Positions 43,593 to 46,973 of a stretch of DNA of 48,917 bases are shown here, one piece after another. Where the stretch lies: contig CAZZPP010000001.1 of assembly GCA_964655705.1 (NCBI GenBank), positions 9,207 to 58,123 on the forward strand, in the 5' to 3' direction. Each line of letters starts with the position of its first letter. Within the stretch, counting starts at the first letter, position 1. The notes below the pieces were generated by a model that was given only the letters and a program-made list of their open reading frames with translations, was not told the DNA's origin and ran no database searches. The DNA is from an uncultured Candidatus Saccharibacteria bacterium (GTDB taxonomy: Bacteria; Patescibacteriota; Dojkabacteria; SC72). A program made the position numbers and the translations under genes.

Positions 43593-46500
43593 ATGCCTAA
43601 GGGAAGAACAAAGAAAAACTATGATGCATTAGGAAGTATATTTGATTTCATCTTTCAAGAAGCAGAAAAGCCTGTAGACAAAAGGAGGCCTGTTCCACCT
43701 ACGGGTATATCTGCTGAGGGAGAATTTAGTGATGCCCTAATATCTACCTTAGAAAAACCAGGTGCTTTCGTTTCAAATACATTAATAAAGGAGTTTAATG
43801 ATGCACTAGATGTTAAGTTGCTTAGTCTAGATTTTAATAATCAGGGGAAGATAAACATATCTGCAAACAATATTGTGGATGTAATTAGAGATCCTGGTGC
43901 ATTTGTTGACAAGGCTATACAAAGAGCTAAGACAGATAGAAAAGCCTCTAGGGTAAGATTCTTAGGTGAGGCAATGGATGATTTCTTGATTACTTCCTGG
44001 GCACATAAATATGGTGATACAGAAGCAAGGGAGATTGCACTTGCAAATGCTTCTGCTAATCAAGATATTAGGAAAGAACGTCACAAGATATCTAGGGCCA
44101 TTGGTCAGAGTGTAAGATATTCTCCCGAGACTCAGTTTCTTAATTCTGACTTTATTATTGACAGAAGTATAGAATTAATTGGAAGACGTACTTTTGGAAG
44201 TAATTGGGATACTCTTTCAGAGAGCCAAAAGAGTGAATTTAGCAATTTACTTTCGGGATCTGGTCCCTTATCAAGCATTACTCGGTCAGAGATAGAGTTA
44301 GATAAATTTGTTTCTGGTCAAAAAAAGTATTCGGAGAATCCTTCTGTTGCTGACGTACAGAAGTACTTAGTTAAAAATTTTGGGAAAAAAGAAGCACAGG
44401 CTTTTGCTAGAGCTGTGGATTATTCGAATCCAAAACAATCTGTAGATATTTCTGACCCTCAATTGTATAAATCTCTAGAAAGAAATCATTTAGCCGGGAA
44501 AATAGGTGCTTTGGGGAATCCTGCAGTTGGAACAGATGATTACAAAAAGAAGTTGATGTATCAAAAGAATCTTAATTTTGTAAATCTTCAGACAAGAGAT
44601 CAGATTAGAGATTTAAAGGAGAAAATAAATGATATTAAGGAGTTAGCAAAAAAAAAGAGGATGGAGCAAACCATTGCTGATGAAGAAATAGCTAAGATAC
44701 AGAAAGCCATTGATGATGGAGAAACTGCTCTTAGATTTATGGGTGGGAAAATGCACAATATCGTAAATGTAACAGGAAGGTTAGAAGGATATCTAAACTC
44801 TCTCAATACTGTTTGGGGAGGAGTAATGGGTGCTCCCAATTTAATATCGAGTATTTTAAATGGAGACTTCTTTGATTCAAGGAAGAACACTTGGAATAAT
44901 CCTGTTGAAGAAAAAGCGGTTACTGATTCAGTAATAATATATATGGCTAAATATACTAAAGGTAGAACTTTTTCAAATGCATATAACAAGATAGGAGAAA
45001 CCGTGTATTATTTAACTCCTAGGTCCATAATGAGAACGTTCTTTTTCAATGGAGAGGGATTTGCCTTACTAATGAGAAAGAGATTAAATTTTTTAGAGGA
45101 TTCTAAAATCTTTGATCTGATGAGAATAGATGGTAATATAGGTGGCAAAAAAATGACTTCAGATGATATTTTAAAGATATACTCTCAGTCGCCCGCAGAA
45201 GTTAAAAAATTTGTTGAGAAGCAACTAGATTTTTTTAAATCACGTCTTACTGACAAGCAATACAAGCAATTAGAAAAACTATTGAAGAGTTCATCAAGAT
45301 ATCATGGACTATTTCATTTCTTTGGAAGACCTGCAAGATTCAAAGCTGCATTAGACAAACTTGTGCAAAAAAGAGCAAGAAGGATAAGGGCGAGATTACT
45401 TAGGGTATTTACTAAGAACAAAAGAATCAGGGAATGGTTAGTTAAAAAGGGTGTACTAAAACTTTTTGGTACATGGGTTGCCAAGGGAGGGGTAAAGAAT
45501 TTAGTTAAGGCCTTTGTTACTACCATCATGGGTGCTTTAGGTCAAACGCTTACACCTGTTGGCAGTATAATAGTTTCAGCACTAACATGGGTATTAACAG
45601 ATTTAATAATGAAACTTACTAAATTTGCAATGCAAATTGCTATATGGATGATGTGGGGATTTATAGCTATAGCAGTCCTTATCTTCTCTGGAGGTCTTTC
45701 ACTTTCTAGAAAATCAAATAAAAGGGCATTTTCATATAACTATGTACCACCTAATGCAGTAAATAAGTGTATGCCAATGAGTCCTCTCGATGACCCAGAA
45801 ACCCCTATTCCCATTATTGGATCTTGTATTCTTGGAGAGGGATATATTCCTTGCTCACAAGGTTGGGATATCAACGCTTCTTGGAGTAACCAGATATGTT
45901 TTAGTCATAACTATCCAGGTATGCATGTTGATTTAACTAATGTTTCGTATATCTATGCACCTGATTTTTGTGATGATTCTGGTTCGGAGTGTAGAATAGT
46001 TAGCTCAACACCCTGGTATTGTGGAACAGATGGGAAATATGCGGGAGATGAGATAGTATTTTCTTTCCAAACAGGGGAGTATACATTTACTTTTAATTTT
46101 CTGCATGTAAAACTTCTACCTGGATTCTCTGCGGGAAGTAGTTTGTCGAGTGGTGCATTTGCCTATGTGCAAGGTAGTGATGAAATTGATAGTGGGAACT
46201 GTTGGAGTGGAAAGCATTTACATATTGAGTATGGGAAAGTGAATGGTACGGCTGTCAGCCCACTAGATTTGTTACTTGCTTTTGATTGTGATGTTCCCGA
46301 AGACGTATCTCAGTGTGCAAGTTGTAATGGTGGTGGTGGTGAGGTAGATCTTCCATTTATTGATCTCCCAGAAAGTGGAGAGAATCCATATGCACAATCG
46401 ATTACCTCAAGTGCAAGTCAAATAACAGGATTTTTAGGAAAAGGATATTGGAATTTCTACAACAAACCGCTACCTGCTATGCCACAAAACTACTCTCATC

Positions 46501-46973
46501 AAGGCGCGAATTTGATTTGGAGTCAAGATAAGTACGAAATGTGGTTGAGTGAGTGGCAGTATCTTCCAGATTATGGAGTAAGTAAATTAAATAGTGATAT
46601 CTACTCGTTATATTGGTGTACGTGGCTAACATACAAATCGTATGTTGCAGCAGGAGTTCCTAATGCCAATTCTGTTCTAGCATATTTCGGGGTATCTGGT
46701 CTTAAGAGCTCATTCTCAAGTGCTGGGAATGGATATAGTTTCATTAGTAATACCTCGGGTATTGTAAATAGTATCTCTCCAGGAGATGTGATCTTCTACA
46801 GTAGGGGCTCTACAGATGCCCATGTAGGTATAGTTAAAAGCGTCTCATCTAATACCATAACCACACTAGAATCAAACGCCAGTAGACTTCAAAGTACTCT
46901 AACAGTCAATGGTGATGGGAGTATTAGTGGAATTGGTGACTTGTCAGTCTCTGGGTTTGGAATATATAGATAA
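43593..46973 (+). CDS. Large membrane protein with C-terminal M23-like peptidase and CHAP domains
   Basis: Helical N-terminal region, TM segment at about 45500-45700, M23-like FLHV..SGKHLHIEY..PLDLL, CHAP YWCTWL..PGDVIF..AHVGIV..TLESN. Confidence 0.78.
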   Translation: MPKGRTKKNYDALGSIFDFIFQEAEKPVDKRRPVPPTGISAEGEFSDALISTLEKPGAFVSNTLIKEFNDALDVKLLSLDFNNQGKINISANNIVDVIRDPGAFVDKAIQRAKTDRKASRVRFLGEAMDDFLITSWAHKYGDTEAREIALANASANQDIRKERHKISRAIGQSVRYSPETQFLNSDFIIDRSIELIGRRTFGSNWDTLSESQKSEFSNLLSGSGPLSSITRSEIELDKFVSGQKKYSENPSVADVQKYLVKNFGKKEAQAFARAVDYSNPKQSVDISDPQLYKSLERNHLAGKIGALGNPAVGTDDYKKKLMYQKNLNFVNLQTRDQIRDLKEKINDIKELAKKKRMEQTIADEEIAKIQKAIDDGETALRFMGGKMHNIVNVTGRLEGYLNSLNTVWGGVMGAPNLISSILNGDFFDSRKNTWNNPVEEKAVTDSVIIYMAKYTKGRTFSNAYNKIGETVYYLTPRSIMRTFFFNGEGFALLMRKRLNFLEDSKIFDLMRIDGNIGGKKMTSDDILKIYSQSPAEVKKFVEKQLDFFKSRLTDKQYKQLEKLLKSSSRYHGLFHFFGRPARFKAALDKLVQKRARRIRARLLRVFTKNKRIREWLVKKGVLKLFGTWVAKGGVKNLVKAFVTTIMGALGQTLTPVGSIIVSALTWVLTDLIMKLTKFAMQIAIWMMWGFIAIAVLIFSGGLSLSRKSNKRAFSYNYVPPNAVNKCMPMSPLDDPETPIPIIGSCILGEGYIPCSQGWDINASWSNQICFSHNYPGMHVDLTNVSYIYAPDFCDDSGSECRIVSSTPWYCGTDGKYAGDEIVFSFQTGEYTFTFNFLHVKLLPGFSAGSSLSSGAFAYVQGSDEIDSGNCWSGKHLHIEYGKVNGTAVSPLDLLLAFDCDVPEDVSQCASCNGGGGEVDLPFIDLPESGENPYAQSITSSASQITGFLGKGYWNFYNKPLPAMPQNYSHQGANLIWSQDKYEMWLSEWQYLPDYGVSKLNSDIYSLYWCTWLTYKSYVAAGVPNANSVLAYFGVSGLKSSFSSAGNGYSFISNTSGIVNSISPGDVIFYSRGSTDAHVGIVKSVSSNTITTLESNASRLQSTLTVNGDGSISGIGDLSVSGFGIYR

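Follow-up and report, generated by a model that had tools for sequence, protein, structure and literature searches.

A Dojkabacteria envelope operon encodes a putative wall hydrolase whose outer module is exchanged together with the downstream gene

Introduction

The Patescibacteria (candidate phyla radiation, CPR) constitute a large and mostly uncultured share of bacterial diversity and live attached to host cells. Here, we examine a gene that may contribute to this lifestyle, located at positions 43593..46973 (+) of a 48,917-nucleotide stretch of DNA, which we refer to as the window (contig CAZZPP010000001.1 of assembly GCA_964655705.1, positions 9,207 to 58,123 of the forward strand). The contig derives from an uncultured, ultrasmall organism deposited as Candidatus Saccharibacteria and placed by GTDB in the Dojkabacteria (SC72). 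The gene encodes a 1126-aa protein, hereafter the target, in which a long helical body is followed by a membrane region, a Cys-rich M23-like domain and a CHAP domain. We show that in this family the hydrolase-bearing tip and the next gene have been replaced jointly between genomes that are nearly identical elsewhere, and we argue that the target is a peptidoglycan-hydrolase subunit of a conserved envelope operon, most likely associated with a machine resembling a type IV secretion system (T4SS).

The closest described system is that of PrgK, a VirB1-like 'DELTA class' monoderm T4SS hydrolase encoded by pCF10 of Enterococcus faecalis, which has 871 aa, a 245-aa basic cytoplasmic domain and one transmembrane (TM) span. 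Its outer domains are LytM, muramidase and CHAP, of which the muramidase is the active domain, whereas LytM and CHAP seem to be regulatory (PMC12857230). The target resembles PrgK in its large charged N-terminal domain, which is predicted to be cytoplasmic, its single TM span and its outer LytM (M23) and CHAP domains, and both genes are followed by one encoding a bitopic membrane protein. The arrangement that characterises monoderm VirB1-like proteins, an N-in anchor carrying extracellular hydrolase domains, is also what hydropathy, Cys distribution and the comparison with PrgK predict for the target. Unlike PrgK, the target has a body of 640 aa rather than 245 aa that lacks a fold match, its gene is not located beside virB4, and its outer module is exchangeable together with the neighbouring gene.

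A second membrane-anchored hydrolase with related features, of 785 aa and with a TM segment, is encoded on a plasmid of Rhodococcus pyridinivorans (NZ_CP096039.1). Its M23 domain aligns with the M23 region of the target family (hhalign probability 89.4%) and SLT and NlpC/P60 (Cys-peptidase) motifs were read by eye. It shares with the target the membrane anchor and the combination of M23 with a Cys-peptidase motif, and its gene cluster contains a polytopic protein similar to that encoded immediately upstream of the target. Unlike the target, it has a short N-terminal part and SLT motifs and resides on a plasmid with conjugation genes. The cluster is conjugative by annotation alone, and BLASTP did not support its 'ATP-binding protein' as VirB4-like. 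Membrane-anchored proteins that combine an M23 domain with a Cys peptidase are thus already familiar from T4SSs. An earlier note on the window, made from the sequence alone, had contrasted the target with VirB1-like proteins as being smaller and usually pairing a lysozyme-type domain with CHAP or NlpC; PrgK and the Rhodococcus hydrolase reveal this contrast as overstated, although the larger body and the lack of a glycosidase domain do distinguish the target.

Polymorphic toxin and effector-immunity cassettes, exemplified by CdiA-CT/CdiI, LXG toxins and Xanthomonas T4SS X-Tfe/X-Tfi pairs, provide a further comparison; in the X-Tfe case, a T4SS delivers effectors that hydrolyse peptidoglycan. 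As in these systems, a constant N-terminal region in the target family precedes a C-terminal enzyme that varies, and the gene downstream changes in step with the enzyme. Unlike them, the target is anchored in the membrane and has no known trafficking domain detectable with Pfam, and the partners of different tips are remote homologues of each other.

Patescibacterial T4SSs have been described as MPF-FATA-like (Quinonero-Coronel 2025; Wang 2023). PMC12102498 describes their genes as chromosomal, dispersed and without a relaxase, and as indispensable to the epibiotic growth of S. epibionticum; that the T4SS is essential for epibiosis in the one genetically tractable species is stated in PMC12102498 and PMC12857230. 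PMC12102498 and its preprint also describe Patescibacterial VirB1-like proteins to which M23 or LysM domains have been added, encoded mostly away from virB4; the homologues in PMC12102498 were found with TrsG, CD419 and VirB1 profiles, and the preprint includes Dojkabacteria among the T4SS-carrying lineages. The window is similar in containing PrgI-like and VirB4 genes, and here too the genes are chromosomal, dispersed and relaxase-free. The operon and body domain considered here do not feature in the passages of PMC12102498 that were consulted.

Results

The target ORF has an ATG start, and its domain fusion is intact in four independent metagenome assemblies from wastewater and bioreactor samples; the gene is common in wastewater reactors. 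Since contigs from four runs in four studies span 45600-47450, and hence the junction between the M23-like and CHAP domains, without any indel or joint, the fusion is not an assembly artefact, and the features listed in the earlier note are present at the positions it gave. The constant N-terminal body (aa 1-640, 43593..45512, +) had been described there as about 600 aa of helical sequence, which agrees with an AlphaFold2 (AF2) model of aa 1-720 that is almost entirely helical (mean pLDDT 76) and runs into the membrane region. Invariant motifs of the body are DxxGxIFDFIF at the N-terminus, GxxEGY (395-399), YYxTPRS (472-478) and NGEGF (486-490). Conservation across the protein peaks in its first 35 residues (xNYDALGSIFDFIFxEAxKPxxKRRP), which may constitute a docking or targeting peptide. 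Cys residues are absent from aa 1-725 (43593-45767), and 12 are found in the last 400 residues.

The body leads into a Lys/Gly amphipathic helix (aa 618-641, 45444..45515, +; KKGVLKLFGTWVAKGGVKNLVKAF), which is retained in the family as KxGAxKLLxxWxAKGG, followed by two hydrophobic segments (aa 655-673 and 677-705, 45555..45707, +). The first segment is borderline on the Kyte-Doolittle scale (1.67) and the second is a clear TM span (2.21); in the AF2 model both are merged into a single long helix (655-716). The amphipathic helix and the two hydrophobic segments are therefore as previously noted, but the two-span hairpin proposed for them is doubtful and topologically unlikely, because a cytoplasmic N-terminus requires an odd number of spans if the Cys-rich hydrolase domains are to lie outside. 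The lack of a signal peptide, the Cys-free body, the Cys-rich hydrolase domains and the basic residues preceding the span all point to an N-in/C-out topology.

The Cys-rich domain that follows (aa ~745-911, 45825..46325, +) contains 11 Cys residues between aa 726 and 911, in line with the estimate of about ten in the earlier note, which had called it M23-like. Pfam M23 gives no match on the target protein even at E<=10, although PF01551 is precomputed on nine of its homologues, and a family profile built from the closest subfamily matched M23 enzymes among solved structures, with ShyA at E=8e-7 and LytM and LysTt72 as further matches. In the AF2 model, aa ~775-910 reach pLDDT >90, and Foldseek ranks LysTt72 (8s3m) and LytM (2b13/2b0p) first for this region, with probabilities of 0.99-1.0 and a TM-score of 0.52-0.54 on LytM. 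Both the model and the profile matches thus support an M23 fold. D780 (45930), H838 (46104), H875 and H877 (HLH, aa 875-877, 46215-46223) occupy canonical ligand or catalytic positions of M23, and the alignment with ShyA pairs H875-L-H877 with its HLH motif and H838 with its YLHL motif. The first Zn-ligand motif is indeed atypical, as had been observed: the family WSH is WSN in the target and in its close relative P0002, and is followed by a 4-aa insert. Candidates for a substitute ligand are His772 (45906; H-x7-D) and His778 (45924; HxD), located in a loop with pLDDT <50. Because the first Zn-ligand His is displaced and the window lacks the M23-type downstream gene that accompanies every M23-only tip, the M23 domain of the target may be weakened or regulatory, much as PMC12857230 describes for PrgK, and the working enzyme is probably CHAP.

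The C-terminal module (aa 920-1126, 46350..46970, +) comprises a helical N-extension and a domain that Pfam PF05257 matches at aa 1006-1095 (E=1e-8; 35.9 bits against a cut-off of 26 bits), so that on sequence grounds its identity as CHAP is certain. Cys1009 (46617) and His1077 (46821), both recognised in the earlier note, and E1093/N1095 of an ESN motif (1093-1095) are conserved in all five CHAP carriers. Per-domain structure prediction, which the note had proposed as a check, modelled the M23-like domain confidently and gave a poor model of the CHAP part, because only two sequences cover it. The module shares 48-51% identity with the CHAP modules of L044, L050 and P0061, whereas the bodies of these proteins are merely 25% identical to that of the target. 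An origin of the CHAP module by fusion with the ~325-aa downstream gene found at other loci was considered and rejected, there being no similarity between the two. Pfam detects no glycosidase (SLT or muramidase) domain in the target.

A sequence search recovered 80 homologues of the target, mostly of 860-920 aa, and the named genomes amongst them are Candidatus Dojkabacteria (WS6). When a profile of the body alone was searched against 1.84 billion protein representatives, only 211 matches were obtained, which marks the family as narrow, and the full-length ones have the same layout. The region beyond the TM span varies on this common body: amongst 178 complete members, M23 is present in about half and an HExxH domain in about a third, and the other tips are M23+CHAP (the window and P0002), M23+VanY (P0326, VanY E 5e-21) and unknown middle domains combined with CHAP, HExxH or M23. 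The HExxH domain (P0006, P0009, P0014, P0017 and others) is Cys-rich, C-terminal and ~190 aa in length, with an invariant HELxH...Q...EWGAD signature and gluzincin-like spacing. A profile search of this module returned no solved-structure match and a member-by-member Pfam scan gave one weak M1 match; it may represent an undescribed family of putative metallohydrolases. Lytic transglycosylase activity had been suspected for the unknown middle domains from the motifs IWIHES and IHYMEGG...NYNGPG (an E-S/E-G motif), but this is unsupported by Pfam or PDB searches, and hhalign comparison of the IWIHES-type (Xp) middle domain with the Rhodococcus SLT region, the PrgK middle domain and Orf14 likewise provided no support.

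The type of tip coincides with the type of the downstream gene in every case: 9/9 HExxH loci, 23/23 M23 loci and 5/5 CHAP carriers. In the CHAP carriers (the window, P0002, P0061, L044 and L050), a short gene encoding 135-175 aa replaces the ~325-aa gene. The window version, p135 (46996..47403, +), has an N-terminal TM segment and an acidic domain of ~100 aa, and is 35% identical to the short proteins of L044 and L050 (E 8e-29). The short TM protein carries the motif YPWYFxxPI and was observed only downstream of CHAP-bearing members (L044:4231-4758, L050:8638-9165, L070:4671-5081 and L071:11578-12030); it has no Pfam or PHROG match. A profile of the ~325-aa family found no match amongst solved structures, and BLAST reveals its M23-type and HExxH-type versions to be distant homologues of each other.

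Other parts of the operon do not follow the tip. For the body and for the 494-aa and 392-aa proteins encoded upstream and further downstream, respectively, distances within and between module types are equal, and the 392-aa protein is 92% identical between genomes with different cassettes. Body distances correlate with those of the 494-aa protein at 0.89, compared with 0.30 for the downstream protein, and at least seven switches between M23 and HExxH are required on a tree of the vertically inherited parts. The exchange is most clearly delimited by comparing L015 (M23) with L013 (HExxH), which share mostly 75-94% DNA identity over the 494-aa gene and the target as far as codon ~715, just past the TM span. 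The value falls to 32-58% over the rest of the target and the entire downstream gene, and is back at 86-94% once the next gene begins. Hence, the hydrolase tip and downstream gene have been exchanged as a unit between genomes that are otherwise nearly identical. By analogy with these breakpoints, the exchangeable cassette of the window is predicted to extend over 45738..47403 (+). Such strain-level turnover of a module together with its partner favours a role in conflict or specificity, and p135 is a candidate cognate partner or immunity protein. Since the partners of different tips are remotely homologous, a structural adaptor fits at least as well as an immunity protein.

We compared the neighbourhoods of 65 fetched loci, judging gene order in those long enough to show the operon. 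All of the latter share the same series of seven genes, and in each of the seven products a TM or signal segment is present. In the window, all on the + strand, the series begins with a small DUF948-like protein (38759-39052), an FN3 protein (39092-40696) and a Cys-rich protein of 453 aa (~450 aa in the family; 40705-42066), each with an N-terminal TM segment; a profile of the 453-aa family found no match amongst solved structures. These are followed by a polytopic membrane protein of 494 aa (~490 aa in the family; 42097..43581), which is weakly TrbL/VirB6-like, the target, the bitopic protein (~325 aa, replaced by p135 in the window) and finally a 392-aa protein (47461..48639) with a signal peptide, a PGRP/amidase_2-like domain, a middle domain and a C-terminal bacterial SH3 domain. 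In the PGRP/amidase_2-like domain the Zn-ligand His is seemingly replaced (consensus KIYIxQ) and the catalytic His is apparently absent; from its domains, this is probably a wall-binding protein. Where the flanks are covered, rsmB/rsmE lies on one side of the operon and uvrD/pcrA on the other. The operon is vertically inherited and chromosomal, and is neither a mobile element nor a prophage. In a deep branch of the family (L029, L034, L037, L049, L053, L057, L061, L062, L065 and L071), it has an eighth member, a much larger second FN3/Pur_ac_phosph_N protein of 880-1160 aa encoded before the DUF948-like gene. L044 and L050 (CAYRDH010000036 and CAYRDH010000021), from one metagenome-assembled genome, are two similar copies of the operon with targets of the unknown-domain+CHAP type (1179 and 1170 aa), reflecting either two strains that were binned together or a real duplication.

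Within the operon, similarity to T4SS components is confined to the 494-aa gene. TrbL is the sole recurring Pfam family on this protein family (4/53 members, best E 6e-5), and its profile aligns with a 977-aa polytopic protein from the annotated conjugation cluster of the Rhodococcus plasmid (hhalign probability 85.6%, E 5.5e-6), with which it has the motif ILGPxxxTxxALPGxxxMxKNW in common. A profile search with the 494-aa family returned only close Dojkabacteria homologues without Pfam labels. The order polytopic-hydrolase-bitopic parallels orf15-orf14-orf13 of Tn916 and prgK-prgL of pCF10. The same window contains a fragment of a T4SS (9637-13488, -), 30 kb from the target, that comprises genes for a VirB4-like ATPase (9637-12012, -; 26% identical to PrgJ of pCF10, E 3e-43), a 213-aa protein that is possibly TrsD-like (12017-12658, -) and a PrgI/VirB3-like protein of 276 aa with a long C-terminal extension (12658-13488, -). 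This fragment is flanked by a gene for an AAA/Lon-lid ATPase and by recF/lepA.

Elsewhere in the window, a 578-aa surface protein (18734-20470, -) with an N-terminal TM segment, a C-terminal 'APKTG' motif, a hydrophobic stretch and a basic tail is likely to be a sortase substrate, and sortase genes are present at 1988-2668 (+) and 29498-30313 (-). DUF11 and Big/FN3 surface proteins are encoded at 22-2022 (+) and 26217-28154 (-). A 531-aa ThyX with two Thy1 stretches (4809-6404, +) is encoded within a folate/dTMP row of folD, glyA, thyX and dcd and is apparently a flavin-dependent thymidylate synthase that has undergone duplication or fusion.

Discussion

With moderate confidence, we interpret the target as the peptidoglycan-hydrolase subunit of a conserved chromosomal Dojkabacteria envelope operon that most likely acts with the Patescibacterial, monoderm-type T4SS apparatus, and as being accompanied by a cognate partner. 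According to this model, the Cys-free helical body of ~640 aa would remain in the cytoplasm, and the span at aa 677-705 would anchor the protein, with the amphipathic helix and the first hydrophobic segment assisting. The disulfide-rich M23-fold and CHAP domains would then lie outside the membrane and cut peptide links of peptidoglycan to make way for the machine; the wall opened could be that of the cell itself, during assembly, or that of the host, at the contact site. The outer part would represent an exchangeable cassette, invariably accompanied by the next gene, whose product, anchored in the membrane on the same face, would be a cognate partner responsible for binding, restraining or positioning the hydrolase. 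The target would cooperate with the VirB3/VirB4 machinery. By analogy, it appears to work like a PrgK-type T4SS wall hydrolase, yet it is not a member of the PrgK family by sequence and is set apart by the size and unmatched fold of its body, by having no glycosidase domain and by the exchange of a cassette that includes the partner gene.

A number of results weigh against this interpretation. Neither BLASTP nor hhalign detects sequence homology between the target and PrgK, and the domain that is active in PrgK, the muramidase (PMC12857230), has no equivalent in the target, which also lacks SLT. The fold search of the N-terminal region recommended in the earlier note yielded no credible relative of the body in PDB or BFVD, the matches being to generic long helices with probabilities <=0.2. 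The VirB6-like similarity of the 494-aa protein is weak and local; this family gave nothing significant against PrgH or Tn916 Orf15 with hhalign or BLASTP, and its profile found no match amongst the solved structures of the PDB. Comparison of the downstream family with the VirB8-like proteins PrgL and Orf13 by hhalign or BLASTP likewise gave nothing significant. In addition, the operon contains no ATPase gene, and virB4 was found within 10 kb of it in 0/65 loci. A T4SS remains the best-supported context and the most likely connection of the operon.

An alternative is that the target belongs to a housekeeping autolysin complex that functions in growth or daughter-cell separation and is unrelated to any T4SS, the operon then being a wall-remodelling machine with the PGRP-SH3 and FN3 proteins. 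The weak VirB6 similarity, the distance to virB4 and the want of an ATPase suit such a complex, as do the wall-binding PGRP/SH3 partner and the core chromosomal site between rsmE and uvrD, which is conserved across the class. Replacement of a catalytic module and its partner at the strain level would, however, be unusual for a housekeeping enzyme, the adjacent gene has TrbL as its only recurring Pfam match, and both the architecture and the gene order parallel those of T4SS hydrolases; we consider this explanation clearly unlikely. Long helical regions, hydrophobic helices and C-terminal M23 or lytic domains are also typical of T5 Pb2-type proteins, and the target layout resembles theirs, which raises the idea of a phage-derived tape-measure-like or tail-tip protein, either domesticated or within a prophage. 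Tape-measure proteins occur amongst the weak BFVD fold matches of the body, and PrgK itself bears the RefSeq name 'phage tail tip lysozyme'. Those BFVD matches have probabilities <=0.2 and TM-scores <=0.13, however; tblastn of the body against 50,697 phage records found no match, PHROGs match the CHAP part alone, as an endolysin, and no phage genes are located nearby, the synteny with housekeeping genes being fixed across the class. A phage origin is therefore largely refuted and highly improbable, and the structural drill that the earlier note had envisaged is unsupported in its phage-like form.

The note had also suggested an injected effector. In a polymorphic effector-immunity system, the constant body and TM region would deliver or present a variable wall-degrading 'warhead' directed against host or competitor peptidoglycan, whilst the downstream protein guarded the wall of the producer. 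This proposal overlaps with the hydrolase-subunit model set out above and differs from it in that the wall attacked is foreign and the partner is an inhibitor. The cassette-like exchange of tip and downstream gene gives it indirect support, with many alternative C-terminal modules on a constant N-terminus, strict co-switching with the next gene in at least seven events, and sharp breakpoints between near-identical genomes. Moreover, the partners have their membrane anchor oriented to the same side as the hydrolase, and between distant lineages the CHAP module (48-51%) is better conserved than any other operon product. On the other hand, immunity proteins of different toxins are usually unrelated, whereas the M23-type and HExxH-type partners are distantly homologous. 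A protein tethered in the producer's membrane has no obvious reach to the wall of another cell, Pfam finds no known toxin-trafficking domain, no orphan cassettes were seen, and each locus holds a single copy in a housekeeping neighbourhood. We regard an effector role as possible, though somewhat unlikely.

A bolder reading, to which we attach only tentative and rather low credence, would have Dojkabacteria carry a T4SS-coupled, strain-variable wall-breaching cassette in which the outer module (M23, CHAP, HExxH, VanY or others) suits the chemotype of the host peptidoglycan that it must open, the downstream protein provides immunity or control, and the body is a new cytoplasmic domain coupling the hydrolase to the secretion ATPases. 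If this were true, cassette exchange would set or shift the host range of Dojkabacteria epibionts.

What is new here is the constant body and the modular tip that switches with the downstream gene. The family brings together three uncharacterised elements, namely the body, the HExxH module and the partner proteins, and the joint exchange of tip and partner yields hypotheses on substrate or host specificity and on self-protection. The target may bear on how Dojkabacteria breach cell walls, and its family supplies a specific candidate for the step at which the wall is opened in one class of the Patescibacteria.

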